Of a stretch of 64,000 nucleotides of DNA, positions 6,409 to 54,142 are shown in pieces (within the stretch, counting starts at the first letter, position 1; each line of letters starts with the position of its first letter). A program made the position numbers and the translations under genes. The stretch is from Acidimicrobiia bacterium (GTDB lineage: Bacteria > Actinomycetota > Acidimicrobiia > Spongiisociales > ZC4RG35), in the NCBI GenBank assembly GCA_044867525.1, contig JBIOVB010000009.1, positions 599-64,598 of the forward strand, read 5' to 3'. The notes below the pieces were generated by a model. The model saw nothing but the letters and a program-made list of their open reading frames with translations, had not been told where the DNA came from and made no database searches.

Positions 6409-6415
6409 CCTCCGA

Positions 6416-6463
6416 TTCTCGCGCGCCGTTGTCGACCCATAGGTCGATAACGGCGCGCGAAAA
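6416..6463. repeat. GC-rich palindromic repeat element, copy 1 (TTCTCGCGCGCCGTTGTCGACC-cata-GGTCGATAACGGCGCGCGAAAA)
   Basis: The 22-nt arms pair at 20/22 positions around a 4-nt centre. The right flank is AAAACGAGGGGGG. Copies 2 and 3 lie at 18919-18966 and 43675-43722. Confidence 0.8.
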
Positions 6464-6505
6464 CGAGGGGGGAAGACCGGTGGAGACTCCGGTTACCCTC
6501 CCGCC

Positions 6506-8467: not shown

Positions 8468-8502
8468 TCCGGCCTCGGACAAGGGTCCAGTATTCTCCGC
8501 GC

Positions 8503-10772: not shown

Positions 10773-10827
10773 TTACGACGGACTAGCGCATTTGCGCACT
10801 CTTCAAGTAGTCCCTGGCACCTGACGA

Positions 10828-16553: not shown

Positions 16554-16573
16554 CGCGCTCTTCGCAGTCAGCT

Positions 16574-38227: not shown

Positions 38228-39202
38228 TCAATCCAGACTCTTCTTGATCGTCGCGTGGATGCGATCCACCGACGGGATGGCGAGGTCCTCGAGGTTCTCC
38301 GCGGCGGGGAGCGGGATGTGGGGCGTGGTGATCCTCACCACCGGCCCGTCGAGATCCCAGAAGGCCTCGTCGGCGACGATCGACGCCACCTCGGCGCCCC
38401 AGCCGCACAGCCTTGGGTTCTCCTCGACCGTGTAGAGCCGACCGGTCTTGGCCACCGACGCGAGCACGGTCCGCGTGTCCAAGGGCACCAAGGTCCGGAG
38501 GTCGATCACCTCCGCTGAGATCCCCTCCTCGCCCAAGCGCTCTGCGGCATTCACGGCCCGGGGGACCATGAATGCCAGCGCGACGATGGTGCAGTCGGTT
38601 CCCTCACGGACCACCTTCGCCTCCCCGAGCCGGGCCACGATCTCGTTGTCGGGCACCTCGGCCTTGGCGGCGAGTAGCGACTTGTGCTCGAAGAACACCA
38701 CCGGGTCCGGGTCGCGCACCGAGGCCGCCATGAGACCGATGACATCTTCCGGCGTGGAGGGGGCCACGACTTTGAGACCCGGGATCATCATGCACCAGTT
38801 CTCAACGCTTTGGCTGTGCTGAGCGCCGAAGCGCACCCCTCCCCCGTTGGCGGTCCGGATCACCACCGGGATCGTGAGTTGGCCGCCGGTCATGTATCGG
38901 CTCTTCGCCATCTCGTTGGCGAGCATGTCGAAGCACACCGCGAGGAAGTCCGAGAACATGATCTCGGCGATCACCGGAGTCCCGGTCATCGCAGCGCCCA
39001 TCGCCGCCCCCACGATCGCCTGCTCCGAGATCGGGGTGTCACGAATCCGGTCCGGTCCGAACTCCTCGAGCAGCCCCACTGTGGTCTTGAACACCCCGCC
39101 CGCACTGGCGATGTCCTCCCCAAGCATCACCAATGATGGGTCACGTCTCATCTCCTGGGCGATGCCCCTGGCAACCGCCTCCCGATAGCTCAGTTCCGCC
39201 AC
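38228..39202 (-). CDS. 2-oxoacid dehydrogenase E1 component, beta subunit (transketolase-like)
   Basis: 324 aa. 'LSYREAVARGIAQEMRRDPSVMLGEDI...DTPISEQAIVGAAMGAAMTG' matches PdhB/AcoB/BkdB. Confidence 0.9.
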   Translation of the reverse strand: MAELSYREAVARGIAQEMRRDPSLVMLGEDIASAGGVFKTTVGLLEEFGPDRIRDTPISEQAIVGAAMGAAMTGTPVIAEIMFSDFLAVCFDMLANEMAKSRYMTGGQLTIPVVIRTANGGGVRFGAQHSQSVENWCMMIPGLKVVAPSTPEDVIGLMAASVRDPDPVVFFEHKSLLAAKAEVPDNEIVARLGEAKVVREGTDCTIVALAFMVPRAVNAAERLGEEGISAEVIDLRTLVPLDTRTVLASVAKTGRLYTVEENPRLCGWGAEVASIVADEAFWDLDGPVVRITTPHIPLPAAENLEDLAIPSVDRIHATIKKSLD

Positions 39203-40260
39203 GCCGAACCTCCGTCGGCCCAGACATCGGTGAGGAGCACGTCCTCGCCGGGGCGTTCTCCCTCCTTGGCGAAAGTGGTGGCCTCCTCGACCCGATCCGC
39301 GACCTGGTGCACGATCTCGGAGAGCCGCGACTCGGGCACCCCGAGCCGGAGCAGACGCTGGTGGTAGATCGGGATCGGATCGTGCTCGTTCCAGGCCTCG
39401 ACCTCCGCCGCCGGCCGGTATTTTCCGGGATCGGCGCGGCTGTGGCCACCGTGGCGGTAGGTCACCGCTTCGATCAGACTCGGACCCTCTCCGGCACGGG
39501 CCTTGGATACGGCGACCCTCGCCGTCTCGTGCACTTCATCGACGTCATTGCCGTCGATCACGATCGGCTCCAGGTCGTAAGAGCCGGCCCGCCCCGCCGC
39601 CGGGTGGCGGGTCGCGGTGACGACATCGATCGGGGTGTATTCCATGTAGAGGTTGTTCTCGCACACGAAGACCACAGGGAGCTTCCACACCGATGCCAGG
39701 TTGAGCGCCTCGTGGAATGCCCCGATATTGGTGGTCCCGTCTCCGAAGAAGGCCACTGCCACCTGGTCGGTGCCCCGCATCTGGGCCGACCACGCCGCGC
39801 CATTGGCCACACACAGGTGGGCGCCGATGATGGCGTAGCTGCCCATCATCCCGTGCTCCACCGAGGTCAGGTGCATCGAGCCTCCCTTGCCCCCGAGGAT
39901 CCCGTTCTCCCGCCCCAGGAGCTCGGCAAGGACCGGGCCCAGAGCCGCCCCCCGCGCGATGGTGTGGGCATGGCCCCGGTAGGTGGCGAAGGTGTAATCG
40001 TCGGAACGCATTGCCTTGGCCACGCCGGTGGCGACCGCCTCCATACCCAGAGAGAGGTGGCTGGTCCCCTTGACCAGGTTCTCCATGAACATGTCGTATG
40101 CCCGCTTCTCGAACTGCCGGAGGAGGTGGAGCATCTCGAACATCGCGACCCGGGTCTCGAGGTCGATGGCGATCCGGTCATTGGCCGGGTCGACGTCGGG
40201 AGGGAGGCGGGGAGGCCGCTGCGCGTAGTCGAGGAGCCCGGGGTCGAGGTCAGTACTCAT
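39190..40260 (-). CDS. 2-oxoacid dehydrogenase E1 component, alpha subunit (TPP-binding)
   Basis: The TPP motif 'FFGDGTTNIGAFHEALNLASVWKLPVVFVCENN' is present. It overlaps the beta subunit by 13 nt and the upstream M24 gene by 11 nt. Confidence 0.9.
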   Translation of the reverse strand: MSTDLDPGLLDYAQRPPRLPPDVDPANDRIAIDLETRVAMFEMLHLLRQFEKRAYDMFMENLVKGTSHLSLGMEAVATGVAKAMRSDDYTFATYRGHAHTIARGAALGPVLAELLGRENGILGGKGGSMHLTSVEHGMMGSYAIIGAHLCVANGAAWSAQMRGTDQVAVAFFGDGTTNIGAFHEALNLASVWKLPVVFVCENNLYMEYTPIDVVTATRHPAAGRAGSYDLEPIVIDGNDVDEVHETARVAVSKARAGEGPSLIEAVTYRHGGHSRADPGKYRPAAEVEAWNEHDPIPIYHQRLLRLGVPESRLSEIVHQVADRVEEATTFAKEGERPGEDVLLTDVWADGGSAWRN

Positions 40261-41527
40261 TGGCCACCATCAACTCCTCGCAAGGAAACAGGGTTGTGAT
40301 CTGCGGCCCCTCGGCGGTGACCACCATCATCTCCTCGATGCGGGCCGCGGAGCGGCCGTCGGCGGCCGGGGCGTAGGTCTCGAGGGCGAAATACATCCCT
40401 TCCTTGATCTCTATGGGGTCGTCCAGTGAGTTCAGCCGGCTGATGATCGGCCGCTCGTGGAGGCCGACACCCACCCCGTGCCCGAATTGGAGCCCGAAGG
40501 CGTCCATTTCGTCCATGAACCCGAAGTCCTCGGCGCGGGGCCACACCTTGGCGATCATGTCCGTGGTATTGCCCGGACGTACCAGCTCGATGCCGGCATC
40601 CATCCACTCCCGGGCCTGTTTGAAGGCGTCGCGTTGCGCGGTGGTAGCCCGTCCCACCACGAATGTCCGGTAGTAGCAGGTCCGGTATCCGTTGTAGGCG
40701 TGGATGATGTCGAAGTACGCCTGGTCGCCGGGCCTGATGAGCCGGTCGCTGAAGACGTGGGGATGAGGACTGCACCTTTCCCCGGCGATCGAGTTGATCG
40801 CCTCCACGAACTCGGAGCCCATCTCGAAGAGTCGGGCGTGGGCCAAGGCGACCACGTCGGACTCCCTGATCCCCGGCTTCAACATCTCGAATATGTCTTG
40901 ATAGACGCCATCGACCATGGCGCTGGCCTGGGTGAGGAGCACGATCTCGTCGGCGCTCTTCATTTCCCTGGCCTGCATCATCGCCTGCTGGCCGTCGGTG
41001 ACATTGAGGCCTTCCTTCTGGAGTGCGAGGAACACTGCGGTTTCGGCCATGTCCACGCCGAGGGGATCGCCATCGATGCCCTCGTCGCGCAGGGCAGCGG
41101 CGATCTCACCGGCGGCCCGGGCGTGGAGGCCCGATCTCGGCCCAATCGCCCCCTGTAGCCCGGTGTTGCCCCCGATCGAGTTCTCGGTGTCGTAGAGGTC
41201 AGGCAACTGGAGGCGATGAGCCTTGGCCGCCGACCCGAAATCCCAGATCCGGGGCCGGCCCTTGCGAGTGATCAGCGCCCAACGCTCCCCCTTGTTGAAC
41301 GCCCAATAGCCGATCTGGGTTGCGGTGGCGTAGCGGATGTTGGAGGTCTCGAAGAGGAGCAGGGCACCCAGGCCTTGTTCCTCCAGCTGCTGCTTGACCC
41401 GGTCGAGGCGATAGGTGCGCAACCGGCCGAAGTCGACCCGGTGCTCCCAATCGACTGCCATGACCCCGGGGGCCGGGGTGGTCGCTACCGGAAAGTCAGT
41501 CATCGGGGTCTCCTTGTGGTCGTCCAT
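40250..41527 (-). CDS. M24-family metallohydrolase (creatinase / prolidase / DoeA / DddP-like)
   Basis: A creatinase-type N-domain is followed by a pita-bread domain with the metal-ligand context 'FDIIHAYNGY', 'GHGVGVGLHERP' and 'ALETY'. The start is ATG 41527, or TTG 41533 overlapping the upstream stop. Confidence 0.85.
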   Translation of the reverse strand: MDDHKETPMTDFPVATTPAPGVMAVDWEHRVDFGRLRTYRLDRVKQQLEEQGLGALLLFETSNIRYATATQIGYWAFNKGERWALITRKGRPRIWDFGSAAKAHRLQLPDLYDTENSIGGNTGLQGAIGPRSGLHARAAGEIAAALRDEGIDGDPLGVDMAETAVFLALQKEGLNVTDGQQAMMQAREMKSADEIVLLTQASAMVDGVYQDIFEMLKPGIRESDVVALAHARLFEMGSEFVEAINSIAGERCSPHPHVFSDRLIRPGDQAYFDIIHAYNGYRTCYYRTFVVGRATTAQRDAFKQAREWMDAGIELVRPGNTTDMIAKVWPRAEDFGFMDEMDAFGLQFGHGVGVGLHERPIISRLNSLDDPIEIKEGMYFALETYAPAADGRSAARIEEMMVVTAEGPQITTLFPCEELMVANEY

Positions 41528-41529
41528 GG

Positions 41530-42420
41530 TCAAGTCGGGCTCTCTTCCCGGAGAAAGGCGGCGATGGCGCTCAGGTCACGGTCACCCATCCCCGCGGCGA
41601 TGGCGCGCTCCACGATGGCGAGGTCGACCGCCGCTTGGTCCATTCGGGCCCCGACCTTCCTCCCCAGCTCGGTTATCAACTCCAGGTCCTTCGCTACCAG
41701 GTCGAGGCTGAATGCGACCGGTGCGTCCTCGGGGTTTTCGTATGCCGCCCGTTTGTACTGGACGAACGGGGCGCCTCCTGCGCCGTTGGCGAAGACGTCG
41801 TAGGCGATGCCCCGCTCCACACCCGCCTTCTCGGCGAGCACCAGCGCCTCCGAGAGCGCAACGTTCAGCCCGTGCACCAAGGCGTTCACCGCAAGCTTGG
41901 TGGCCGCTCCCGAGCCTCGCGGGCCGGTCTCGACCACCCGAGCGGCCAATGCGTCGAGCACGGGCCGCGCCGGACCCAGGGAAGCGGCATCTCCGCCCAC
42001 CATGATCGTGAGCGCCCCCTGCTCGACCGTGGAAACGCTGCCCGACACCGGGGCATCGAACAGAGACGCTCCGGTGGCATCGATGGGAGCACCGATCTCA
42101 TAGACGACTTCCGGGGAGATCGTGCTCATCTCGAGTGCGACCATTCCGGCGCCCAGGCCGCCGACCGCGCCGTCGTCGCCCAGATAGACGTTGCGCACCG
42201 CCTCGTCGTCGGCGAGGCTGCTGATGACGACGCCAGCTTTCTGTACGGCCTCCGCCGGTGTCGCCGCGATGTCAGCACCCAATTGGTCGGCAAGCCGTCG
42301 TGCCTTTTCCCGGTCGCGGCTCCAAAGGACCAACTCGAAGCTGGCGCGGCTCAAGGTGGCGGCCATGGCTCCACCCATCCGACCGCACCCCAGCACGGCG
42401 ACCTTGGGGGCGCTCTCCAT
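41530..42420 (-). CDS. NAD(P)-dependent beta-hydroxyacid dehydrogenase (HIBADH / GarR family)
   Basis: 'VAVLGCGRMGGAMAATL' gives the Rossmann fold, and 'DAPVSGS' is the family motif. ATG at 42420. Confidence 0.85.
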   Translation of the reverse strand: MESAPKVAVLGCGRMGGAMAATLSRASFELVLWSRDREKARRLADQLGADIAATPAEAVQKAGVVISSLADDEAVRNVYLGDDGAVGGLGAGMVALEMSTISPEVVYEIGAPIDATGASLFDAPVSGSVSTVEQGALTIMVGGDAASLGPARPVLDALAARVVETGPRGSGAATKLAVNALVHGLNVALSEALVLAEKAGVERGIAYDVFANGAGGAPFVQYKRAAYENPEDAPVAFSLDLVAKDLELITELGRKVGARMDQAAVDLAIVERAIAAGMGDRDLSAIAAFLREESPT

Positions 42421-42423
42421 CAA

Positions 42424-42442
42424 TGAACAGTCACACTACACA
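42424..42442. promoter_or_regulatory. Shared 19-mer TGAACAGTCACACTACACA (site A)
   Basis: It is 17/19 identical to the site at 51660-51678, including an exact 14-mer AGTCACACTACACA. It lies 4 nt upstream of the HIBADH-like start on the coding strand. Confidence 0.4.
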
Positions 42443-42455: not shown

Positions 42456-43658
42456 TCATCCAGGGAGGAGCTGCCCCGCCAGGCCTGCGATGTGAGCGCC
42501 GATGGCGAGGCTTGCCGTGGCTCCTGGCGAGGGCGCATTGAGCACATTGATCGTCCGAGCGGTCTCCTCGATGACGAAGTCGTCGACCAGGCGGCCGTCG
42601 GGGCCGATCGCCTGCGCCCTGACTCCGGCACCACCTGCTTGGAGGTGCTCGGGCCGGACCGCAGGCACCAGACGCCGAGCCGACCGCGCGTAAAGGGCGC
42701 GGGAACGTGACCTAACCACCTCACCGGCGCCGGTCCACCAGTTTCGCCCGGCGAGTTTCCAAAAGCCTCCCGTGGTCAGTGTCTCCCTTATGTCCGGCCA
42801 CGATGGCGGAGCACCCCGGTAGTGCTCTCTCCCCAAGGCGAGCACCGCGTTGGGCCCGACCTCGACGGTGCCGTCGATGCGTCTGCTGAAGTGGGCCCCG
42901 AGAAAGGGAAACTTGGGGTCGGGAACCGGATAGATGAGGGATCTGACAAGGTCGGCGTGACCCTGATCGAGGGTGTAGTACTCGCCGCGGAAAGGCACGA
43001 TCCGAATCTTGCTCGACACTCCGGCCAATGCCGCGACCCGGTCGGAGTGGAGCCCGGCACAATTGACCAGGAGCCGGGCCCGATGCTGCTCCCCTCCCGC
43101 CACCAGGCCCACCCCGTCGACTCCCTCCGTGATCGACTTCACCTCTTTCCCGAGGCCTATCACCGCCCCCTTGTCCTCGAGCCTCCGCCTCAACGCCCCG
43201 GCTACTCCCGAAAAGTCGGCTACGCCGGCACTTGGCACGTGAAGGGCAGCGACACCCACCGCCGCCGGTTCATGCTCGGCGATGCCCCCCGACCCAATAC
43301 GTTCCAGTCCGGGGAGTCCGTTGGCGGTGCCCCGCCGCTCCAGTTCGCCCAGCTTCTCCAATTCGCGCTCAGAGGACGCGATCACCAGCTTTCCGGTGCG
43401 ACGGAAAGGGACCGACTCCTGGTCACAGAGCTCTTCGAGCATGCGGCCACCCTCGACACAGAGTCGGGCCTTGAGAGACCCTGGCCGGTAATAGAGGCCA
43501 GAATGGACCACCCCGCTGTTGTGACTGCTCTGGTGGGTAGCGACGTCGGATTCCTTGTCCAGGATCGTGATCGAGATCCCAGGGAACCGATCGACAAGTG
43601 CGTGCCCGACACCAAGGCCGATCAGCCCGGCGCCGACAATGCAGACGTCCGAGCTCAC
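42456..43658 (-). CDS. lhgO: L-2-hydroxyglutarate oxidase/dehydrogenase (LhgO/YgaF family FAD enzyme)
   Basis: 'DVCIVGAGLIGLGVGHAL...ILDKE...HQSSHNSGVVHSGLYYRPGSLKA' matches the LhgO signature region. GTG start. Confidence 0.85.
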   Translation of the reverse strand: MSSDVCIVGAGLIGLGVGHALVDRFPGISITILDKESDVATHQSSHNSGVVHSGLYYRPGSLKARLCVEGGRMLEELCDQESVPFRRTGKLVIASSERELEKLGELERRGTANGLPGLERIGSGGIAEHEPAAVGVAALHVPSAGVADFSGVAGALRRRLEDKGAVIGLGKEVKSITEGVDGVGLVAGGEQHRARLLVNCAGLHSDRVAALAGVSSKIRIVPFRGEYYTLDQGHADLVRSLIYPVPDPKFPFLGAHFSRRIDGTVEVGPNAVLALGREHYRGAPPSWPDIRETLTTGGFWKLAGRNWWTGAGEVVRSRSRALYARSARRLVPAVRPEHLQAGGAGVRAQAIGPDGRLVDDFVIEETARTINVLNAPSPGATASLAIGAHIAGLAGQLLPG

Positions 43659-43765: not shown

Positions 43766-46228
43766 TCAAATCTTTGGCAGTTTGAAGCCGGACTTCTCGA
43801 CCACGAAGTCCCGTGAATCGGTCGCCATCCTCCGCACTGCCGGCCAATCGACATGGAGCAGCTCGCCATGCTCCTTCATCACGTGCCCGGCGATGAGCAC
43901 GGTGTCGACATTCGAGGTGTCCATGCCTGCGACGACCGCAGTGGCCGGGTCGTTGAGGGGGGTTACGTTCGCCCGGTCGGTGCGCAGCATGATGAGGTCG
44001 GCCTGCTTTCCCGGTGTCAGCGTCCCCACCTTCGACTCCAGGCCATTGGCTCGAGCTCCCTCGACCGTGGCGTACTCCAACACCTGGCGTGGCGACACCG
44101 GGGTCTTGCCCTGAGAATTGGCAACAGCTCGTTGCAGTGCGAGCACGGAACGCATCTGGTTGAACATGTCGGCCGGGACGTTGGTCTCGACGTCGATGCT
44201 CAGGCTGGGGCGAAGACCCCGGTCGAGGAACTTCTGGATCGGGGGCATCCCGTGGCCCATCATCATCTCCACCGGGGAGGCGAGAGACACTGTGCCCCCG
44301 CTGTCCACGATCATTTGGATCTCGATGTCGTTGAGGGTCGTGCAGTGGATGTAGGTGGTGTCGGGGCCGAGCAGGCCGGCCTCCCCGAATCGCTGCACCT
44401 TGGCGTCCTGGCCATAGGAACCGACACCAACATGGGTCGTGATCCGGGCCCCGGTCTCCCGGGCCAACTTCCAGTGGTCGCGGGACACCTCGAAGTCGGT
44501 GAACTCGGGGCCGGGTGCAGCCAGGGCGAGGGTGAGCCTCTGGTCCTTGGTCGAGAAGTGCTCGGTGGCGGCACGGACGAACCAACTGGGCTGACGCTCC
44601 TCCCACTTCCCCCACCAGGGGAAACCGTAGGCAAATACCGCCCGAAGGCCCGAGTCCTCGAGGGCTTGGATGACGGCGTCGGTGTGGGCCGGCGATCCCT
44701 GAATGTGCGACCAGTCGAGGAGAGTGGTGATCCCGGCATCGATGGCCCCCAGCGCGGAGACCAGGTTCCCGGCGTAGGCGTCTTCCGGCCGGAAAGCCGG
44801 AGCCAGCTTGTGGAGAACGAACGAGATGTAGCTGGTCCGTCCCTCCAGGGGGACATCAGTCCCGATGTTGCGGAGCAGGCCCTCCCATATGTGACGATGG
44901 GTGTCGACGAACCCGGGCATGACGATCATCCCCGAGGCGTCGATCACCTCGACCTCCCCGTTGGCCAGGCTCGGCCCAATGGCAAGGATCTTGTCCCCTT
45001 CGATCATCACGTCGGCGACGTCGAAGTCCCCGAGACCCGGGTCGAGGGTCAACACCATGCCCCCCTTGATCAGCTTCTTCCCGTTGGGCACAACCGAGAA
45101 GTTGGTGCCAGTCGGGTAGAACGCGGGAACCACCGCTTTCTCCTGGACCCGGTTGCCGATCCACAGGCGCCTGGCCCGCTTGTAGTTCCGTTTGACCAAC
45201 TCCTTGAGATCCCCCGCTTGGAAGAGAAGAAGGCCGAGGAGGATCAGAAGACCGATGATCATGGTGCCGTCACTCGGTGACAGGCCGAGGTAGGGCAATA
45301 CGGTGAGGATCACCGCGAGCAGAAGCGCCGCCACAGTGCCGCCGATGAATGTCGCCCGGCCTCCGGCCAAGGATGCTCCTCCGAGGACTGCTGCGGTGAT
45401 GCTGTTGAGGGCAAACGTCGAGCCCACCTGGGCGTTGCCGATCGGCGACCTCGCCATGACGAAGAAGGAGGCGACAGCCGCGAACAGGGATGCCAGGAGC
45501 AGGGCGCGGACCCGAACCCAGTTGGTACGCACGCCTCCTCGCTTGGCGGACCTCTCGTCGAATCCGACCGCGCGCAGTTGCAGGCCCGACCCGGAAGCGT
45601 GGAGCCAATAGTCGAGGGCGGCGGCCGCGACCACGATGACGATGAACGCCACGGGAACGGGCCCGATGCTTGTGGTGAGCACCGACACCAGCCCGCCGTT
45701 GATGACCCCCTGCGCAGTGGGCCTGAGTGTGAGAGCGATCCCGTCGAGGATGCTCAGTGTGGCCAGCGTGGCGATGATCGAGGGGATCTTGACCCCACGA
45801 ATCAGACCCGCGTTGACCAGTCCGATGATCAGGCCGCAGAGCAGGATCAGGGCCACGCCGGTCACGATCTGGAAGGTGGTCGCCTCGACGCCGATCAGGA
45901 AAGAAGCAAGAACCACCCCGAGACTGATGGTTGACCCAACCGAAAGGTCGATATAGCCGACAAGGAGGGCGTGGGTCTGGGCGAAGGTGGCGACTATCAG
46001 CGGCAGCGCCAGAATGAGGATTTGGTTGACATTGGTGGCGTTGATGAAACCGGGAAAGCGGTTGGTGGTGAACCAGAGCAGCCCGGCGAGGAGGAGGATC
46101 TGCAAGGCAACCGGCATCCACAGTCGGAACTTGACGATCTTTCGCCACCTGTTCTTGTCGCGGGCATCCCGAATGACCTTGCGAACGACCTGTCTCGCCG
46201 AGTCGGCCCGGTTGGTGGTGATAGTCAC
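43766..46228 (-). CDS. Fusion protein: CUT2-type (RbsC/AraH-like) ABC permease N-terminal domain plus ATZ/TRZ-type amidohydrolase C-terminal domain
   Basis: This is a single 820-aa ORF. Residues 1 to about 338 (nt 45215-46228) are polytopic and resemble the permease at 49295..50344. A basic 'KRNYKRARR' stretch and a linker of about 45 aa follow. Residues from about 384 to 820 (nt 43766-45079) align from the very N-terminus of the amidohydrolase at 50341..51585 ('MPGFVDTHRHIW'). The GTG start overlaps the ATPase stop (GTGA). Confidence 0.8.
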   Translation of the reverse strand: MTITTNRADSARQVVRKVIRDARDKNRWRKIVKFRLWMPVALQILLLAGLLWFTTNRFPGFINATNVNQILILALPLIVATFAQTHALLVGYIDLSVGSTISLGVVLASFLIGVEATTFQIVTGVALILLCGLIIGLVNAGLIRGVKIPSIIATLATLSILDGIALTLRPTAQGVINGGLVSVLTTSIGPVPVAFIVIVVAAAALDYWLHASGSGLQLRAVGFDERSAKRGGVRTNWVRVRALLLASLFAAVASFFVMARSPIGNAQVGSTFALNSITAAVLGGASLAGGRATFIGGTVAALLLAVILTVLPYLGLSPSDGTMIIGLLILLGLLLFQAGDLKELVKRNYKRARRLWIGNRVQEKAVVPAFYPTGTNFSVVPNGKKLIKGGMVLTLDPGLGDFDVADVMIEGDKILAIGPSLANGEVEVIDASGMIVMPGFVDTHRHIWEGLLRNIGTDVPLEGRTSYISFVLHKLAPAFRPEDAYAGNLVSALGAIDAGITTLLDWSHIQGSPAHTDAVIQALEDSGLRAVFAYGFPWWGKWEERQPSWFVRAATEHFSTKDQRLTLALAAPGPEFTDFEVSRDHWKLARETGARITTHVGVGSYGQDAKVQRFGEAGLLGPDTTYIHCTTLNDIEIQMIVDSGGTVSLASPVEMMMGHGMPPIQKFLDRGLRPSLSIDVETNVPADMFNQMRSVLALQRAVANSQGKTPVSPRQVLEYATVEGARANGLESKVGTLTPGKQADLIMLRTDRANVTPLNDPATAVVAGMDTSNVDTVLIAGHVMKEHGELLHVDWPAVRRMATDSRDFVVEKSGFKLPKI

Positions 46229-47820
46229 GAGAGACTCGCCTTCGTCGGGCTGCGGGGCATGGCCACTCCGAGTGGGGAGCGCCCGGCCTTGGACAGGCCA
46301 GGGCCGCGGACGATTGCCTCGGTGATGCGACGCTCGTCCAACTCGTCGCCGGGGATCTCCTCGACGATGGTTCCTCTGGACATGACCAAAACCCGGTCGC
46401 AGAGCCCTGAGAGCTCGATGGGATCGCTCGACTTCACGAGGAGGGCAGCTCCGGCGTCGGTGCGCGCCCGGAGCGCCTTGTATATGTCGAATCTGGACCC
46501 CACGTCCACGCCTTGGGTGGGCTCATAGGCCATGATCACCGCCGGGTCCTTCAGGAAGGAACGGGAGACCGAGACCTTCTGTTGGTTGCCCCCGGATAGG
46601 AACTCAACCGGCTGCTCGAGAGATGGAGTCCTTATCTCGAGCTCGCCTACGAGACCGTCGACGGCATTCCGCTCGGACCCTCGCCTGAGGAACCCGAGAA
46701 CGCTGAACTTGCTCAGAGACTGAATCGTGGCGTTGACCCGAACCCCGAGCACAGTGGCCAGGGCTTCCCTCTTGCGGTCGCCGGGAAGAAGCATGACGCC
46801 CGCGTTGACCGCTTCACGAGTGGAGATGAGATTGAGGTCCTTGCCGTTGCAGACCACGCGCCCCGCCCTCGGCGGGACCCTCCCCGCCAAGCAGTCGAAG
46901 AGCTGGGCCTGCCCATTCCCCTCGGCTCCGGCGATGCCGACGACCTCTCCTCCTTCCAGAGTGAACGTCACCGGTCCGAACGACTGCCCCTGCAGGCCAT
47001 CGACCAACAGGACCTCGCGCCTCTCGGCATTCGACGGGGCCGCTGCGGGAAATGCCGCCTCGAATGGCCTTCCCACGATCAGCTCCACGAGCTCGGATTC
47101 GGTTGTCGCCCGGGCGTTGAACGTGCCCCGGTTGCGGCCGTCTCTGAGCACGGTGATCCGGTCGGCAATCTCCAACACCTCGGGGAGCCGATGACTGACA
47201 TAGACGACTCCGACACCGCGCTTCCGGCATGCCACCACGGTGCGATGAAGTGCCTCGACCTCGTCCGGCCCCAGGGCTGTGGTTGGCTCGTCGAGGAGCA
47301 ACACCTTGGGGTTGGTGACCAACGCCTTGGCGACCTCGAAGAGCTGTCTCTCGGCAAGGGTGAGGAACGCGGCAGGGGCGTCGGGAAAGAGCTCGAGGTC
47401 GAGGTCGAACTCCGAGAGCAGCTTGCGCGCCCATTTCTTCCGACGCCAGAACGGTGGCCGTTGGTCCGGCGGCGCTGCCAGGAACAGATTGTTCTTGACC
47501 GGTTCCGCCTGGACAATCGAGGTGTCCTGATAAGCCATGGCCAGGCCAAGCTTCCGGGCAAGTGCTGGGGAATCGGTGCGCAGGGGCTTTCCCCCGATGC
47601 GCACCGCTCCCCTATCGGGCTCTATGAACCCACTGGCAATCCCGAGGAGAGTCGACTTGCCCGAGCCGTTCTCCCCGACCAAGGCGTGGACCTCACCGGC
47701 ATGGCAGTCGAAGCTGACATCGGTCAGCGCTCGAACCGCCCCGAACTGCCGGGAGACACCTTTCAGCTCGAGGACCAGGTCCCCGTCCGCCGATTCTCCT
47801 CTGGGAATGCCGTCGCTCAT
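46225..47820 (-). CDS. Sugar-type (CUT2) ABC transporter ATP-binding protein with duplicated NBDs
   Basis: 531 aa. NBD1 carries 'GENGSGKST' and 'LLLDEPT'. A degenerate second NBD carries 'LSGGNQQK' and a second Walker B. Confidence 0.9.
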   Translation of the reverse strand: MSDGIPRGESADGDLVLELKGVSRQFGAVRALTDVSFDCHAGEVHALVGENGSGKSTLLGIASGFIEPDRGAVRIGGKPLRTDSPALARKLGLAMAYQDTSIVQAEPVKNNLFLAAPPDQRPPFWRRKKWARKLLSEFDLDLELFPDAPAAFLTLAERQLFEVAKALVTNPKVLLLDEPTTALGPDEVEALHRTVVACRKRGVGVVYVSHRLPEVLEIADRITVLRDGRNRGTFNARATTESELVELIVGRPFEAAFPAAAPSNAERREVLLVDGLQGQSFGPVTFTLEGGEVVGIAGAEGNGQAQLFDCLAGRVPPRAGRVVCNGKDLNLISTREAVNAGVMLLPGDRKREALATVLGVRVNATIQSLSKFSVLGFLRRGSERNAVDGLVGELEIRTPSLEQPVEFLSGGNQQKVSVSRSFLKDPAVIMAYEPTQGVDVGSRFDIYKALRARTDAGAALLVKSSDPIELSGLCDRVLVMSRGTIVEEIPGDELDERRITEAIVRGPGLSKAGRSPLGVAMPRSPTKASLS

Positions 47821-47834
47821 TCAGCCGGTATTGC

Positions 47835-49214
47835 TCACCCGGCGGGGAACATCAGGGCCAGCACGTCGTCGGGCACCAATGACGTCCCTGACACCGCCTC
47901 GTGGACCCGATCCGGGTTGCAGTCTGCGGTCGTGACCTGCCGCATCACATGCGGAACCACGACCTCTGCCGGGATCGGTGCGCCTGCGATGGACATCATC
48001 GCCGCGGTGACGCCGGTCCGTGACTGGAAGTTGCCACCGGCGGAGTACCAGATGTTGTAAGTCGGGTCGTTGCGCTCGGCCCAGTCGCAGAACAGGTTCT
48101 GCTCATCTGTCCGGAGAGCCAGCGTCAGGTTGGAGACCGGGATCCCCAGCTCCTCGTACACGGGCAGGCCGTACCAGATCCCGTCGGCGTACTCATACGC
48201 ATATCCCCGGATCTCGGGATTGCTGGTGAGCAACCCGCGGAACACGTCGGGAATCGCAGGCGGGAACCAGAAGGTGTCACCGGTTGTGCTGTCCTCGTTC
48301 GCCGGCGGGTTGACCAGAGTGGCCTCCGCGCTCAGAGAAGAGATCGCACAGCGCTGCCACCCGAGCGAAAGGGCATTGCCCGGAGTTCCCCCAAGCATCG
48401 CCACCTCGCCGGCGCCGACGCCGGTGTTGAGAACGTCGGAGAAGCTCTCGCCGAGGGCACACAGGTCTTCGCCAACCACGGTCAGGTAGCCCTCACCTGG
48501 GGTGAGCGCACCATCCTGTCCGGGCAGACCGACCCATCCCGCCGAGAACGGGACGTACGGAATGCCGGCATCGGTGGCTGCCTGGATCGCGGGCGCGATC
48601 GCCACTCCCATGTCGGGATAGCCGACAATGAAGTCGACGCCTCTCTGCACCAGGAAGTTGATGTCGTTGGCATGCACCGCCGGGTCCGGGTCGAAGTCCG
48701 CCGCCGTGGAGACGATGGTCCCGATCTCGGGGTAGGTGAGCGCCTGGAGGATGGCCTCCATGTGACTCACTGCCCGCCAGACGTTCACGGTGTCGCCACC
48801 ACCATCGGCATAGCCCATGACGAGCTCCCCGCCACTGCCGGTCTCACACTCCTGGCTGCTCCAGCACTCCATTGCCTTGTCGATCGTCGCCTGATCGAGC
48901 GTCTGGTTAGCCCGGGCGATCGACGCCAGAACGATGTTCCAGCTGTCGGCGTCCGAAGGCTCCACCGGGCCCAAGGCCTTGGTGACCAATGCAGGATCCG
49001 CAGCTCCGGGGTCTTCGTTGTAGTCCGCCAGCGGGTTATCGCTGGTCGCCGCGGTCGTGCTGGGCGCTTCACCCGCCGTCGTGGTCGGCTCGGCCGCCGC
49101 GCTCGTCGTTGGCTCGGCTGCGGCGGTCGTACTCGTGTCGCCTGTCTCTCCGTTACACGCGGACACGACCAAGACCAGGACGGCAACGAGGCCGATGATC
49201 TTCAATCGCTTCAT
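47835..49214 (-). CDS. Type-I periplasmic-binding-fold substrate-binding lipoprotein (RbsB-like, divergent)
   Basis: The start is ATG 49214 with a GAGGAGG RBS. The lipobox is 'LVVSAC'. A repetitive 'TTAAAEPTTSAAAEPTTTAGEAPSTTAA' linker follows. The body has at least 7 Cys and only loose similarity to sugar SBPs. Confidence 0.75.
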   Translation of the reverse strand: MKRLKIIGLVAVLVLVVSACNGETGDTSTTAAAEPTTSAAAEPTTTAGEAPSTTAATSDNPLADYNEDPGAADPALVTKALGPVEPSDADSWNIVLASIARANQTLDQATIDKAMECWSSQECETGSGGELVMGYADGGGDTVNVWRAVSHMEAILQALTYPEIGTIVSTAADFDPDPAVHANDINFLVQRGVDFIVGYPDMGVAIAPAIQAATDAGIPYVPFSAGWVGLPGQDGALTPGEGYLTVVGEDLCALGESFSDVLNTGVGAGEVAMLGGTPGNALSLGWQRCAISSLSAEATLVNPPANEDSTTGDTFWFPPAIPDVFRGLLTSNPEIRGYAYEYADGIWYGLPVYEELGIPVSNLTLALRTDEQNLFCDWAERNDPTYNIWYSAGGNFQSRTGVTAAMMSIAGAPIPAEVVVPHVMRQVTTADCNPDRVHEAVSGTSLVPDDVLALMFPAG

Positions 49215-49294
49215 GTTCCTCCTCAATTGGGCGCCTCCGCCCTTGCTCTGTTCATTCGATCGGTGTCGACTGGTTGGAATTCCGATCTCCTTTC

Positions 49295-50344
49295 TCAACC
49301 ATTTCCGCTTGAGCTCTTGGTCGTTTCTCTTTCGGTGCGTTTCGGATTTCTCCGCTCGCGAAGCACGCGCTCCACGCCTTTGATGATCCGATCGCCCGAA
49401 ACCAACATGCCGCCGATGATCACCAGCCCGAACACGACGAACTGGAATGCTGTGGGAAGACCCATCGACCGCATCATGTAGTCGAGCCCGACGAGGAAGA
49501 AGGCTGCGGCGAAAGTGGAGAGCGGGCTGGCCAAGCCCCCGGTCAGAGAGGCACCGCCGATCACCACAGCCGCGATCGGCCCCAAGAGATACTCAGAGCC
49601 GATGGAGACACCGGGACTGCCGAGGAGCCCGGCGAGCGCTACCCCGGCGACTCCATAGAGGGTTGCCGCCGCGATGTAGGCAGACATCTGATTCAGCGTG
49701 ACCCGAAGGCCAACCACCTGTGACGAGACGGGGTTGGCGCCAACCGCCTGGAACCTGCGGCCCACCGTGAGGTATCTGAAGCCCACGATCAGGATCAGGG
49801 TGATCACCAGCCCGATCCAGAACACGGGACTGATCCCGAACACCTTCGTCCTGGTCCAGCTGGACCACGCATCGGGTACCGGGCTCTGAACCGGGAAGGC
49901 CCGCCCGTATCGCGCGACGACACCAATCACCACCTGACCGACAGCCAGGGTGACGATTAGCGGATTGAGCTTGAGCCCACCGACGAGGATCCCGTTGAGG
50001 AGACCGACAAGCGCTGCCGCGCCGACTGCGGTGAGAAGGGCGACTGCGACCCGCTCATCGCTCTGCTGACCGACACCAACCATGAGGGCCGCGGCCAACG
50101 ACATCGTCCCCGGGACGCTGAGATCGATGCCGCCGGTCATGATGACCAGCATCTGGCCCAGGGCGGTTATGGCGAGGAGTGCCCCGTAGGGGGCGATCGC
50201 GCTCAGTGTCACGCTCCCCAGCGTCGCCGGAACCCAAATCATGGCCACGACCACCAGCAGGACCAGCGCGATATACGCCGGCAGATACCGGGACGCGACC
50301 ACGAAGGACGTGATAGCCGTGGAGGAGGTGGTCGCGCTCGTCAT
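49295..50344 (-). CDS. CUT2-type ABC transporter permease (RbsC/AraH-like)
   Basis: 349 aa, polytopic, with 'TGGIDLSVPGTMSLAAAL' typical of this family. The ATG overlaps the stop of the upstream amidohydrolase (ATGA at 50341-50344). Confidence 0.88.
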   Translation of the reverse strand: MTSATTSSTAITSFVVASRYLPAYIALVLLVVVAMIWVPATLGSVTLSAIAPYGALLAITALGQMLVIMTGGIDLSVPGTMSLAAALMVGVGQQSDERVAVALLTAVGAAALVGLLNGILVGGLKLNPLIVTLAVGQVVIGVVARYGRAFPVQSPVPDAWSSWTRTKVFGISPVFWIGLVITLILIVGFRYLTVGRRFQAVGANPVSSQVVGLRVTLNQMSAYIAAATLYGVAGVALAGLLGSPGVSIGSEYLLGPIAAVVIGGASLTGGLASPLSTFAAAFFLVGLDYMMRSMGLPTAFQFVVFGLVIIGGMLVSGDRIIKGVERVLRERRNPKRTERETTKSSSGNG

Positions 50345-51585
50345 GCCACGTCCCCCGAGCCCGATCCGACGAGAAGTCCGGCGGCTCCCGCCACCCGGGC
50401 CTGGGCGGTGGCGGCCAGGCTCCGAGCCTTGGCCACGTCACCAGTGAGATTCCCAGCTTGCATCACCACCTCCCCGCCGACGAAGACCCAGTCCACGTTC
50501 GAGGTGTCCATACCCCACACCACTGCGCCGATCGGGTCGTTGACCGGGGCGATGTTGGGACGATCGGTTCGAAGGAGGATCAGATCGGCCTTTTTCCCCG
50601 GCTCCAAGGACCCGACGACGGACCCGAGCCCTACCGTGTTGGCTCCGTCCACGGTCCCGAAGCGAATCACCTCCCGGGTCGTGAGCAGATTGGGAAGACC
50701 CGCCTTGCCTGCCAGCTTGAGATCGAAATACGTGCCGTGTTGCAGGGAGATGGTTGCCCTCATCTGGGCAAAGAGGTCTCCGGGGGCGACGCGCTCGTCG
50801 TCGATGCCGAGACCGGGCCGGATCTTTCGATCGATGATGCGCTGGATGGGGGGCGTTCCGATCCCGTTTGCCATCTCCGAGGAAGGGGTCAGGGCGACTC
50901 TCGCTCCAGACGCAGCGATAGCGTCGAGGCTCTCGTCATCGAGATTGGTGCAGTGCACGAGGGTGACATCGGGCCCGAGCAGGTCTCGGAGGGATGCACT
51001 GTCTGCGACGTCGGCTTGGTCGATCCCGGCGTGGGCGTGCACCCGGCTGCCCATCCGCCTGGCCTGGGCCAAACCATCGGACAACCCGGCGGCTCTGGCG
51101 CCCAGCGCGATGGTGGTCCTGCCGGCCCCGGGCGCTTGGTGGAGGCGCTCAAACGTCACGGGGTCCGGCACCACCAACACCGTCCGCATCCCGGAGTCGA
51201 AATGGGCTTCGAGAGCAGCCTCGGCCAGGCTGCCGTCGGAGTGTGCATCGGACCAGTCGACGATGGTCGTGATCCCGGCCTCGGCAGCCCCGAGCAGTCC
51301 GATCAGAGTCGCCGCGTACAGGTCATCGGCACCAAAACGATCGCCGACATCGGACGAGGCGTCGCCGAGATTGCGAAACAGAGATCGCCATACGTGACGA
51401 TGGGTGTCGACGAACCCGGGCATCAGAATCGTGTCCCTGGCATCGACGACCTCGGCGTCGCGGGCGCGGATCCCGGGCCCGATTTCGACAATGGTGTCGC
51501 CATCGATCAAGACGTCGGCTTCGGCGAAGTTTGCCTTCGCCATGGTGAGGACGCACCCACCCCGAAGAAGCGCCTTTTTCGTCAT
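50341..51585 (-). CDS. ATZ/TRZ / cytosine-deaminase-type amidohydrolase
   Basis: 414 aa with 'MPGFVDTHRHVWRSLFRNLG' (HxH metal site), 'VHAHAG' and 'VHCTNL'. It is a paralogue of the C-domain of 43766..46228. Confidence 0.88.
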   Translation of the reverse strand: MTKKALLRGGCVLTMAKANFAEADVLIDGDTIVEIGPGIRARDAEVVDARDTILMPGFVDTHRHVWRSLFRNLGDASSDVGDRFGADDLYAATLIGLLGAAEAGITTIVDWSDAHSDGSLAEAALEAHFDSGMRTVLVVPDPVTFERLHQAPGAGRTTIALGARAAGLSDGLAQARRMGSRVHAHAGIDQADVADSASLRDLLGPDVTLVHCTNLDDESLDAIAASGARVALTPSSEMANGIGTPPIQRIIDRKIRPGLGIDDERVAPGDLFAQMRATISLQHGTYFDLKLAGKAGLPNLLTTREVIRFGTVDGANTVGLGSVVGSLEPGKKADLILLRTDRPNIAPVNDPIGAVVWGMDTSNVDWVFVGGEVVMQAGNLTGDVAKARSLAATAQARVAGAAGLLVGSGSGDVA

Positions 51586-51659
51586 CCGTTCCCGCTGGAA
51601 TCGACCGTCGAGAGCACCCGGGCGACGGAGAACGGCGGTGGGTTGAGGGGGCCACTCAC

Positions 51660-51678
51660 TGATAAGTCACACTACACA
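51660..51678. promoter_or_regulatory. Shared 19-mer TGATAAGTCACACTACACA (site B)
   Basis: It is 17/19 identical to the site at 42424-42442. It lies about 75 nt upstream of the amidohydrolase ATG (51585), in the same orientation relative to the downstream gene. Confidence 0.4.
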
Positions 51679-51732
51679 TCTCGGCTGATGACCGGCCCTG
51701 GAAATGACGGTCTGCTGCCCGCACCCCTGTCG

Positions 51733-52629
51733 TCATCCCCCTGCCTCGAGAGCCTCGGTGAGATAGATCCAGTCCCGCCGGAACCGGTAGGAATGACGGG
51801 GTGGAGGCTGAGGCGCCTGGGTCTCGAGCCAGCGAACCGGGCCCTCTCCGACATTGCGGAACTCGTGCACACAGCCCACGCCGGCCCAGGCCACGTCGCC
51901 GGGCCCGAGATGGTATTTGATCCCGTCGAAGGCGGCTTCCACTTCCCCTTCCAGGATCAGGTAGGCCTCTTCGAGCGGGTGATCGTGGGCCCCGGCGAAG
52001 CCTCCCGGGACATATTGGACCATGAACATGGTCGAGAGGTCGGCTCCGAGGTCGGAGTCGATCATCATCTTGACCGAGATCCCGCTGTAGACCAGGAGGG
52101 CGGTCCGCATGCTGGCGCTGAGGGAGAGTCGGTCCTGAGTCTGCATCGCGGGATTCATGTTCTCGGGATCGATATGGCCAAAGCTGCGATTCCTCGGGTC
52201 GCGCACATCGATCAACGCTGCCTCCCCGACGGGTGGCGACTCCGGGAAATAGGTGTCGTAGTCGTGGCGCCGGCGAGGAAGAGGGGCTCTCATCTCGGCA
52301 AACGAGACCGGCCCCGAAGATGGGTTGCGCAGGGAATGAGTCACCCCCACCGGCGCCAGGCCGTAGTCCCCCGCACCAAGCCGGAAGCTGCCCTCGGGAA
52401 GGTCCGCGATCAGCTCCCCCTCCAGGACGTAAAAGGTCTCTTCGAATGAATGGAGATGGTGGGAGATGACACCACCGGGGCCAAGTCGTGAGATCTGAAA
52501 GCCCATCTGCACTGCCCCCGCCTCCTCGTCGACGATCAGATCGCCCAGGTACTCGATGCTCTTTCCCTCGAACCCGGCCGGGACCCGGTATTCGTGATCA
52601 CCGGCCTTCTTGACGATGTGATTCGACAT
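51733..52629 (-). CDS. Bicupin protein (ureidoglycine-aminohydrolase-like fold)
   Basis: The start is ATG 52629. Two cupin barrels are present, each with a His-rich motif ('GGVISHHLHSFEETFYVLEGE' and 'GFAGAHDHPLEEAYLILEGE'). Confidence 0.75.
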   Translation of the reverse strand: MSNHIVKKAGDHEYRVPAGFEGKSIEYLGDLIVDEEAGAVQMGFQISRLGPGGVISHHLHSFEETFYVLEGELIADLPEGSFRLGAGDYGLAPVGVTHSLRNPSSGPVSFAEMRAPLPRRRHDYDTYFPESPPVGEAALIDVRDPRNRSFGHIDPENMNPAMQTQDRLSLSASMRTALLVYSGISVKMMIDSDLGADLSTMFMVQYVPGGFAGAHDHPLEEAYLILEGEVEAAFDGIKYHLGPGDVAWAGVGCVHEFRNVGEGPVRWLETQAPQPPPRHSYRFRRDWIYLTEALEAGG

Positions 52630-52677
52630 GAAACTCCGACCTCGACAGGACCGATCAGCGAGGCTACACACCCACAT

Positions 52678-52693
52678 GGCCCGGATCCGGGCC
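52678..52693. promoter_or_regulatory. Perfect 16-bp palindrome GGCCCGGATCCGGGCC in a divergent intergenic region
   Basis: The sequence is exactly self-complementary. It lies between the bicupin start (52629, minus strand) and the SDR start (52806, plus strand). Confidence 0.3.
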
Positions 52694-52805
52694 CGAGCAC
52701 CGTTGTCATGGGATGATTTCCCCGGCGATTACGGATACTGAGCACCCTTCCCGGGGTCTAGGCTCGCACAGATGACTTTCGTCGAGCGTGGGAAGGACCG
52801 ACCAC

Positions 52806-53498
52806 ATGGGCGATGAGATCGTCCTGATCGTCGGGGGAACCAAGGGCATCGGCCTCGAAGTCGCCCGTCACTACGCGTCCCGAGGCGAGGCCGTGGTGGT
52901 CACCGGGCGGGACGCGGCAAGGGCATCGGCGGCGGCCTCCGAGCTCGGGTCAGGGGTCAGCGGCATCGGATTCGACATGGGAGACCCCTTCCAGGTCGGC
53001 CCTGCGCTCCAAGAGGTGGGCCCGGTCTCCCGTCTGGTGTTGTCTGCGATCGCCCGCGACGAGAACCCGGCACGGGAATACAAGGTCGCGGCCGCGGTCG
53101 AGCTGACGACGTTGAAGCTCGTCAGCTACGTGGAGGCCATCCACACGCTGCTTCCCCGTCTCTCCGACTCGAGCTCGGTAGTCATCTTCGGAGGACGGGC
53201 CAAGGACCGCCCATACCCGGGCTCGACCACGGTCACCACCATCAATGGCGGTGTCAGCTCGATGATCCGGACCCTCGCGGTCGAGCTGGCCCCGATCCGG
53301 TTCAACGCGATCCATCCCGGGATCGTCGGGGACAGCCCGTACTGGAAGGACAAGCCACTCGAGGGAGTGGTGGCCCGGACCCCGACCAGACGCCTGGTAA
53401 CCATGGCCGACGTGGTGGATGCCACCGTGTTCTTGCTCGAGAATCAGTCCGTCAACGGAGTAAATCTCTATGTCGACGGCGGATGGTTGTTGATGTGA
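52806..53498 (+). CDS. Short-chain dehydrogenase/reductase (SDR)
   Basis: The start is ATG 52806 (GGGAAGGA upstream). The cofactor motif is 'IVGGTKGIGLEVARHYASRG', and the C-terminus 'VNGVNLYVDGGW' is typical of SDRs. Confidence 0.85.
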   Translation: MGDEIVLIVGGTKGIGLEVARHYASRGEAVVVTGRDAARASAAASELGSGVSGIGFDMGDPFQVGPALQEVGPVSRLVLSAIARDENPAREYKVAAAVELTTLKLVSYVEAIHTLLPRLSDSSSVVIFGGRAKDRPYPGSTTVTTINGGVSSMIRTLAVELAPIRFNAIHPGIVGDSPYWKDKPLEGVVARTPTRRLVTMADVVDATVFLLENQSVNGVNLYVDGGWLLM

Positions 53499-54142
53499 GT
53501 CAGAGCACCGGGACCACGGTCAAACACGAGCTCGATGGCATCGGAGACCGACTCAGGGAGGAGCGCCTGAAGGCCGGGATCAGCCAGCGTGAGCTGGCTC
53601 GCCGGGTAGGGCTCTCGGCGAGCCTGATCTCACAGCTGGAGAGCGGGCTGTCCAAGCCATCGGTCGGCACCCTGTACGCAATCGTCACCGAGCTCGGCGT
53701 CTCGGTCGAGAGGGTGATTCGCGGTGACCACCCAGCCGGTTCCGAGTCCGTAACCGCTCCACACTCGGACCCGAGCCCACTGGTGCACCCCGACGAGCGC
53801 GCGGTCGTCGACCTCGCATCCGGCGTGCGTTGGGAGCAACTGACCTCGGAGACCGAGGAGGGAGTCGACTTTCTCCACGTCATCTACGACGTCGGCGGCT
53901 CGTCGACTCCGGACAGCTCATTGATGCGTCACAACGGCCGGGAATACGGATACGTGATCTCGGGCACGCTGGGAGTCCAGGTCGGCTTCGAGAAACACAT
54001 CATGAGCCCCGGTGATTCGATCGCCTTCGACTCGACGACACCTCATCGTCTCTACAACGACGGAAACGAACCGGTCCACTCCGTCTGGTTCGTGGTGGGC
54101 CGCGACGGGGACAGTAGAGCCCGGCTCAGCGGACACACATAG
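53483..54142 (+). CDS. XRE-family HTH regulator with C-terminal cupin sensor domain
   Basis: The HTH is 'LREERLKAGISQRELARRVGLSASLISQLESG' and the cupin is 'GREYGYVISGTLGVQVG...PGDSIAFDSTTPHRLYN'. The start is ATG 53483, or GTG 53495 (GTGA overlap with the SDR stop). Confidence 0.85.
   Translation: MVVDVSQSTGTTVKHELDGIGDRLREERLKAGISQRELARRVGLSASLISQLESGLSKPSVGTLYAIVTELGVSVERVIRGDHPAGSESVTAPHSDPSPLVHPDERAVVDLASGVRWEQLTSETEEGVDFLHVIYDVGGSSTPDSSLMRHNGREYGYVISGTLGVQVGFEKHIMSPGDSIAFDSTTPHRLYNDGNEPVHSVWFVVGRDGDSRARLSGHT

Follow-up and report, generated by a model that had tools for sequence, protein, structure and literature searches.

Importers of the CUT2 class (TC 3.A.1.2), known from LsrACDB, YtfQRT-YjfF, RbsABC and AraFGH, are built from an ATPase of about 530 aa with two nucleotide-binding domains (NBDs), two BPD_transp_2 permeases and a substrate-binding protein (SBP) of the RbsB fold. 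ATP-binding cassette (ABC) importers in general are thought to release free substrate into the cytoplasm. The system considered here, an importer of the same construction with two associated amidohydrolases, lies on the minus strand of a 64,000-nucleotide stretch of DNA from an Acidimicrobiia bacterium (assembly GCA_044867525.1, contig JBIOVB010000009.1, positions 599 to 64,598 of the forward strand), which is called the window below and provides the numbering for all features within it. The system departs from the described CUT2 importers in carrying a 440-aa metallohydrolase (AmidB) on the C-terminus of one permease (Perm2) and a paralogue of this enzyme (AmidA) encoded ahead of the other permease (Perm1), in having a lipoprotein SBP that exceeds the usual size by about 100 residues, conserves six Cys and gives only 42 bits on Peripla_BP_4, and in reaching no equivalog cut-off. 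We favor, with modest confidence, a reading in which a CUT2 importer holds the intact AmidB on Perm2, AmidA acts as an accessory and often non-catalytic partner, and the product passes to a co-regulated module. A literature search found no description of a permease-amidohydrolase or ABC importer-enzyme fusion, of a function for PRK08204 proteins, or of clusters that combine a bicupin with an amidohydrolase. The locus differs from known systems in its covalent tether, in having a degenerate paralogue and in the regulon attached to it, and it offers a natural example, so far undescribed, of an enzyme tethered to a pump that probably feeds it.

The fusion gene (43766-46228, minus strand) encodes 820 aa that comprise a BPD_transp_2 permease domain, Perm2 (residues 1-343; 45200-46228), a basic, Pro-containing linker of about 40 aa (residues 344-383; 45080-45199; ...KELVKRNYKRARRLWIGNRVQEKAVVPAFYPTGTNFSVVPNGKK...) and the complete amidohydrolase AmidB (residues 384-820; 43766-45079), an intact metallohydrolase of the PRK08204 subfamily. 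The fused architecture of about 817 aa recurs in more than 120 clusters at 90% identity, all from metagenome-assembled genomes (MAGs) of Acidimicrobiia or Actinomycetota. A scan of one genome per species matched up to 361 stretches, of which the best 80 (76-94% identity) are all full-length; these 80 species-level loci, from related soil Acidimicrobiia, are the set on which the comparisons of gene order, overlaps and motif given below were made. Of 200 genomes sampled evenly across the same order, 61 match the fusion gene, with matches in 30 of the 78 genera, and at least 37 carry the full-length gene in one open frame. A sequencing or frameshift artefact is ruled out as the source of the fused frame by the more than 120 clusters and by the 80 species loci, with zero internal stops. 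When 1.84 billion representatives clustered at 50% identity were searched, a single cluster among the best 150 relatives proved to be fused (822 aa) and the others measure 198-537 aa, the full-length ones about 450 aa; that there is only one fused cluster at this level indicates that the fusion arose once. Taken together, the data indicate that the permease-amidohydrolase fusion is real and old. In three MAGs the gene is split, its permease and amidohydrolase parts lying in adjacent frames that overlap (G007:C4 80514-82965; G039:C9 434641-436937; and G189). All three are long-read assemblies, and the split frames, which could reflect either indel errors or secondary fission, are tentatively read here as indel errors.

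The order AmidA-Perm1-SBP-ATPase-Perm2::AmidB holds without exception in the loci whose contigs extend far enough. Pfam and NCBIfam profile searches agree with the assignments of six open reading frames (ORFs), these five and an upstream bicupin, and the six minus-strand genes, the 147-nt spacing from the bicupin stop to the AmidA start and the two start-stop overlaps are as an earlier note on this DNA had placed them. The same note had argued that the association of amidohydrolases with the importer is functional and not an accident, and this claim withstood a gene-neighborhood survey, the linkage being conserved in related genomes. The overlap of the AmidA stop with the Perm1 start (ATGA, read from the sequence as GCATGACG) is kept as a 4-nt overlap in 50 of 54 loci, and that of the ATPase stop with the GTG start of the fusion (GTGA, CTCGTGACT) in 67 of 72. 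The first of these had been taken as a tie specific to AmidA and Perm1, an idea that does not survive comparison with the SBP-ATPase junction, which lies at -4 or -1 in 50 of 64 loci. As short overlaps occur throughout the operon, the ATGA overlap does not single out the AmidA-Perm1 pair, and tight coupling is a property of the operon as a whole. AmidA itself is an intact ORF in every locus whose contig reaches far enough.

The remaining parts of the importer conform to the CUT2 plan. The ATPase (46225-47820, minus strand) is one polypeptide of 531 aa with two ABC_tran stretches, and scores 340-380 bits with AraG, XylG and RbsA-like models, under their equivalog cut-offs. Perm1 (49295-50344, minus strand) and the N-terminal domain of the fusion are both BPD_transp_2 permeases (PF02653, 86.6 and 63.8 bits, respectively) and are 28% identical to each other. 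The SBP (47835-49214, minus strand) is a cluster-B lipoprotein that exceeds the cut-off of PF13407 (Peripla_BP_4; 42 bits against 35); its orthologues start with MxRxKIIGL, have an AAC/SAC lipobox and conserve all six Cys. Its AF2 model (pLDDT 87, residues 1-57 disordered) matches RbsB 7e7m with an E value of 6.5e-15 and a TM score of 0.84 over the target in Foldseek, with about 60 extra N-terminal helical residues beyond the RbsB fold.

The described enzymes nearest to AmidB are the ATZ/TRZ-like amidohydrolases (COG0402), which include AtzA, TrzN and the guanine, cytosine, 8-oxoguanine and methylthioadenosine/S-adenosylhomocysteine (MTA/SAH) deaminases and share with it the (beta/alpha)8 fold family and five ligands. 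These ligands, HxH on strand 1, His on strands 5 and 6 and Asp on strand 8, are invariant in 81 of 81 AmidB sequences, and 60% of AmidB columns are at least 95% conserved. The best solved relatives are AtzA, the uncharacterized amidohydrolase 3hpa, MTA/SAH deaminase, 8-oxoguanine deaminase and TrzN, with E values from 1e-28 to 1e-22. AmidB differs from the ATZ/TRZ enzymes in that it passes only NF006056/PRK08204, an entry named 'hypothetical protein' (510 bits, cut-off 391), and no named deaminase model of NCBIfam reaches its cut-off, the best giving 182 bits against 609. It also differs in lacking the HxxE glutamate, a residue that serves as the proton shuttle of cytosine, adenosine and guanine deaminases, AtzA and TrzN. 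In the alignment HVGV stands in AmidB where 3hpa has HLAE and 4f0r has HIHE, and Glu does not predominate in this column among 66 representatives of the PRK08204 family; an invariant, family-specific Glu is found in PVEMMMGHG, at a place where the deaminases have Asn. As the HxxE Glu is missing across the subfamily, PRK08204 proteins are not standard heteroaromatic deaminases, and the assignment of the two enzymes to the guanine/cytosine/atrazine-deaminase type in the earlier note is not borne out for AmidB.

AmidA (50341-51585, minus strand) is a free, PRK08204-like paralogue of 414 aa, 39% identical to AmidB (E 4e-90), partly degenerate and evolving at two to five times the rate of the fused copy. 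It scores 315 bits to NF006056 in two stretches, below the cut-off of 391, is about 35 residues shorter than AmidB owing to deletions between strands 3 and 5, has 24% of its columns at least 95% conserved and has tree branches 3-5 times longer than those of AmidB. The strand-8 Asp, a residue that every amidohydrolase needs, is replaced by G, A or E in 15 of 54 AmidA orthologues (28% of species), 11 of which have no Asp at this position or the next one, and four orthologues have Q or G in place of the strand-6 His. In the tree AmidB is sister (SH-aLRT 92) to a clade formed by AmidA and the unfused proteins P0132 and P0190, and each of these two unfused members is without one ligand as well (Asp to Gly in P0132; strand-5 His to Gln in P0190). 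AmidA is decaying under constraint, with pairwise dN/dS of about 0.22-0.25, compared with about 0.11 for AmidB, and 0.12 within an Asp-less AmidA pair (L035/L074), all of these values being rough because dS is near saturation (about 1). Selection that persists despite the loss of the Asp is most simply explained by a non-catalytic partner, and most likely AmidA is an accessory to the tethered AmidB that often has no catalytic role. The combination of a constrained paralogue with catalytic losses in many lineages and an intact AmidB beside it is reminiscent of enzyme-pseudoenzyme pairs. Of the symmetry that had been seen in the two permease-amidohydrolase ties, the associations themselves are kept on both sides but the copies are unequal, as only AmidA evolves fast and loses ligands.

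Under the proposed mechanism, the lipoprotein SBP, the tandem-NBD ATPase and a heterodimeric Perm1/Perm2 channel would form a dedicated binding-protein-dependent importer, with AmidB carried on the cytoplasmic C-terminal tail of Perm2 by the basic linker. The N-terminus of the fusion is basic (12 K/R in 36 residues), as is the segment past the last hydrophobic stretch of Perm2 (9 K/R in 32 residues), so that by the positive-inside rule both ends of the Perm2 domain, and with them AmidB, are predicted to be cytoplasmic. AmidB tethered in this way would be the first enzyme to act on the imported compound, right where the compound leaves the pump. Enzymes of the amidohydrolase superfamily are usually oligomers. 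AmidA would pair with the single tethered AmidB, and the pair would sit under the Perm1/Perm2 heterodimer, its stoichiometry aided by translational coupling. The product would then be handed to the bicupin, an M24 hydrolase, a thiamine diphosphate (ThDP)-dependent E1 alpha/beta pair, a HIBADH-family dehydrogenase and a short-chain dehydrogenase/reductase (SDR), with an XRE-cupin regulator in control; the order of the reactions is one that we infer. The C-terminus of Perm1 (49295-49390, minus strand) is a basic tail of about 30 aa, …RVLRERRNPKRTERETTKSSSGNG, similar to the first part of the linker between Perm2 and AmidB, and may serve in docking.

The module genes other than the bicupin extend the locus on both sides beyond the six genes to which it had previously been confined. 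On the minus strand these are the HIBADH-family beta-hydroxyacid dehydrogenase (41530-42423), found in many related loci and beside unfused relatives, the M24B hydrolase (40250-41533; DddP, prolidase or creatinase-like) and the ThDP-dependent E1 alpha (39190-40260) and E1 beta (38228-39202), which together span 38228-40260. On the plus strand, divergent to the bicupin, are the SDR (52788-53498) and the XRE-cupin regulator (53483-54142), both of which are co-located in related loci and in loci of unfused relatives. The M24 and E1 genes always form one block, the M24 gene occurring in 44 of the 80 loci and always being followed by E1 alpha and E1 beta. This block and the bicupin, SDR, HIBADH and XRE-cupin genes are found upstream, downstream or divergent to the transporter, in an order that varies by lineage, and shuffling with retention of this sort is the mark of a functional unit. 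The gene for the L-2-hydroxyglutarate oxidase LhgO (42456-43658, minus strand; NF008726, 492 bits against a cut-off of 299) is present only in the closest relatives (L010, L027, L052, L066 and L077) and is not core to the locus.

The M24 protein is nearest to DddP and prolidase and far below their cut-offs (98 bits against 600 for DddP). It has a Cys where these two have their second metal-binding Asp, so that in place of the D, D, H, E, E set it has D, C, H, E, E, a combination that fits neither creatinases, which are metal-free, nor the classical dinuclear enzymes. No E2 accompanies E1 alpha and E1 beta in the window locus or in the Acidimicrobiia loci, which leaves the gene set of a 2-oxoacid dehydrogenase complex incomplete. 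The bicupin (51733-52629, minus strand) has the full HxH...E...H metal motif in both cupin domains, with H58, H60, E63 and H98 and H215, H217, E220/E221 and H255 invariant or nearly so; a longer ORF extends to 52677, and the N-termini of orthologues (MSxHIVK) favor the start at 52629. It had been described as ureidoglycine-aminohydrolase-like, a label that finds little support, as it scores 27.6-29 bits on the (S)-ureidoglycine aminohydrolase (UGlyAH) models, whose cut-offs are 200-445. A Foldseek search with its model (pLDDT 83) gave YxaG quercetinase (7e-19), oxalate decarboxylase and YlbA/UGlyAH (1e-17 to 2e-16) and salicylate dioxygenase as about equal matches, all at 12-17% identity; the YlbA-type entries (1sfn, 1sq4, 4e2q and 1rc6) range from 7.5e-18 to 3e-15, and quercetinase and oxalate decarboxylase do as well as these. 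As a route to the substrate, structure did not discriminate: the Foldseek neighbors of the SBP and of the bicupin left function and ligand undivided.

The transporter and the downstream block are further connected by a shared cis-motif. The 14-mer TGTGTAGTGTGACT has exactly two perfect copies in the 2.68-Mb genome, and these stand at the heads of the two segments, one about 80 nt upstream of AmidA (51665-51678, minus strand) and the other in front of the HIBADH-M24-E1 segment (42429-42442, minus strand). In 21 related loci variants of the motif precede AmidA, always in operon orientation; a third copy precedes the bicupin in three loci (L001, L010 and L066), and a degenerate third copy is seen in the window near 52650-52672. 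The motif is a candidate promoter, with a -10-like TAGTGT, or operator. Between the bicupin and the divergent SDR/XRE-cupin pair there is also a 16-bp perfect GC-rich palindrome, GGCCCGGATCCGGGCC, at 52678-52693.

PRK08204-family amidohydrolases adjoin CUT2 importers also in a Gaiellaceae genome (L096), in Acidisoma (L097), on a metagenome contig (L091) and at a second locus of the source genome itself (C61), and the link between these enzymes and CUT2 importers therefore extends beyond the fusion; the unfused loci differ from the window in usually having one amidohydrolase and no fusion. The Gaiellaceae locus (45%) reads bicupin-E1alpha-E2-E1beta-XRE-cupin / Perm-ATPase-SBP-Perm / amidohydrolase-SDR and, to judge from its gene content, is the same system in unfused form. 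It differs from the fused locus in having a single amidohydrolase, which lies beside the first permease gene and is transcribed divergently, and in having no M24 gene; a lipoyl E2 gene stands between E1 alpha and E1 beta (180-3192 of L096), whereas the Acidimicrobiia version has M24 and no E2. In Acidisoma (44%) the order is HIBADH-amidohydrolase-Perm-SBP-ATPase::Perm, and the fusion there, unlike Perm2::AmidB, joins the tandem ATPase to a BPD_transp_2 permease (830 aa; 12808-15300 of L097). The importer at C61 (L089, 3406-15734) is distantly related and unfused, with an SBP (8491-9912), an ATPase (6840-8360) and two permeases (5795-6847 and 4806-5798). A PRK08204 paralogue stands on either flank, one canonical (3406-4794, 561 bits) and one divergent (10806-12320, 376 bits, with the strand-5 His replaced by Asp), beyond which are MetE-like, GFO/IDH/MocA and Zn-dependent alcohol dehydrogenase genes and, at 16246-17529, an FAD-monooxygenase gene.

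The genes around the closest unfused relative of AmidB (56% identity) encode a GntR regulator, an extradiol-type dioxygenase and a Peripla_BP_4/ABC system, and relatives in cultured Cupriavidus, Rhodococcus, Sinorhizobium and Burkholderia (43-51%) lie in clusters of aromatic hydroxylase, extradiol dioxygenase, hydrolase and fumarylacetoacetate (FAA)-hydrolase genes; those in Pantoea and Streptomyces have other contexts. The attempt to read a substrate from the unfused relatives did not succeed, as their contexts are mixed (CUT2, extradiol dioxygenase, MFS transporter and biosynthetic-looking clusters) and no single pathway emerges. A described protein with some likeness is KpiC of Arthrobacter sp. 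IN13, a PF01979 protein that acts as a ring-cleaving dioxygenase on 3,4-dihydroxypyridine (PMC7356986). It shares with AmidB the Pfam family and the company of N-heterocycle or aromatic catabolic genes, and the Cupriavidus relatives of AmidB stand in an FAD-monooxygenase, alpha/beta-hydrolase and FAA-hydrolase cluster similar to kpi. KpiC was placed nearest to enamidase and not to the MTA/SAH deaminases (PMC7356986), and it is therefore probably of another subfamily than AmidB.

Several points weigh against the reading of AmidA as a partner of AmidB. The AmidA of the source genome keeps every metal ligand, which sets it apart from the pseudoenzymes of known pairs, and could therefore be an active enzyme here; the selection estimates suffer from the near-saturation already mentioned; the cytoplasmic position of AmidB is argued from charge bias; and the pairing of AmidA with AmidB is something that we infer. 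A tree with AmidA and AmidB as strict sisters was tried and rejected by the approximately unbiased (AU) test (p-AU 4e-5), so that AmidA may be a paralogue of older origin that has its own function. If there is no physical pairing, AmidA could be an ordinary soluble enzyme that carries out a second step or acts on a related substrate and just shares the operon; its place next to Perm1 would be inherited, and it would decay where its step is dispensable. This would suit the rejected sisterhood, the 4-nt or 1-nt overlaps that join most genes of the operon and the unfused Gaiellaceae amidohydrolase, which already adjoins the first permease gene in divergent orientation. It is nevertheless an improbable account in our view, since the AmidA ORF is intact in every locus that reaches far enough, a canonical and degenerate pair recurs around the C61 importer of the same genome, and the purifying selection in Asp-less lineages is unexpected for a dispensable enzyme and cannot reflect catalysis by the usual mechanism. 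The partner reading can be carried a step further, tentatively, to a transport metabolon in which AmidB and a pseudo-enzyme AmidA form a heterodimer under the channel and the substrate is converted on leaving the pump; a catalytic and a degenerate copy would then be the general arrangement for PRK08204 enzymes that serve CUT2 importers.

Rival accounts of the substrate draw on the same observations. The earlier note pointed to an amino- or ureido-substituted N-heterocycle in preference to a sugar; on the account that follows from it, two active amidohydrolases of the guanine/cytosine/atrazine-deaminase type would work in sequence, each coupled to one half of the channel, with a UGlyAH-like bicupin. 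The best named NCBIfam and PDB relatives (AtzA, TrzN and the MTA/SAH and 8-oxoguanine deaminases), the complete HxH, His, His and Asp sets of both AmidA and AmidB in the source genome, the presence of two different C-N hydrolase families (amidohydrolase and M24) in the regulon and the aromatic ring-cleavage clusters of the cultured Cupriavidus, Rhodococcus, Sinorhizobium and Burkholderia relatives all speak for such a compound. There are also precedents, namely KpiC in hydroxypyridine catabolism (PMC7356986) and the combination of an amidohydrolase with a ThDP decarboxylase in the lumichrome pathway, in which a ThDP-dependent heterocycle decarboxylase acts after hydrolases (PMC12746152). An N-heterocyclic substrate is possible, but the preference over a sugar is weakened by the RbsB-fold SBP, whose first 50 Foldseek neighbors are nearly all binders of monosaccharides, polyols, inositol or methylthioribose. 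With the HxxE glutamate absent from AmidB and its whole subfamily, no named deaminase model at cut-off, the essential Asp gone from AmidA in 28% of species and the bicupin at 29 bits with an unspecific fold match, the two-deaminase account as a whole is unlikely, as is classical purine, pyrimidine or triazine deamination. Some amidohydrolase-fold proteins perform non-amide chemistry. The sugar-type SBP, the CUT2 architecture and the missing deaminase Glu might accordingly be taken to indicate a nitrogen-free sugar, polyol or sugar-acid derivative, on which AmidB would carry out, e.g., lactone hydrolysis or an O2-dependent reaction, as KpiC does as a ring-cleaving oxygenase of PF01979 (PMC7356986), and the SDR, HIBADH and E1 proteins could form an oxidative sugar-acid route. 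We give this account very little weight, because the core of the regulon includes two C-N hydrolase families that are not related to each other (PRK08204 and M24), the cluster conserves none of the kinases, aldolases, dehydratases or isomerases that typify sugar routes, and the characterized enzymes nearest to AmidB all hydrolyze C-N or C-Cl bonds. Our best guess for the substrate is a small polar nitrogen-containing compound.

A conserved tether between a channel and an enzyme amounts to a natural experiment on the physical coupling of uptake and metabolism. Were the metabolon to prove true, it would represent a group-translocation-like mode for a binding-protein-dependent ABC importer, and AmidA, if it is indeed a structural partner of the tethered AmidB, would be a new example of pseudoenzyme recruitment. 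The fused gene is widespread in uncultured soil Acidimicrobiia, being present in one open frame in about one fifth of the sampled genomes of the order, and the identity of the ligand would annotate hundreds of genomes together with the amidohydrolase subfamily NF006056.

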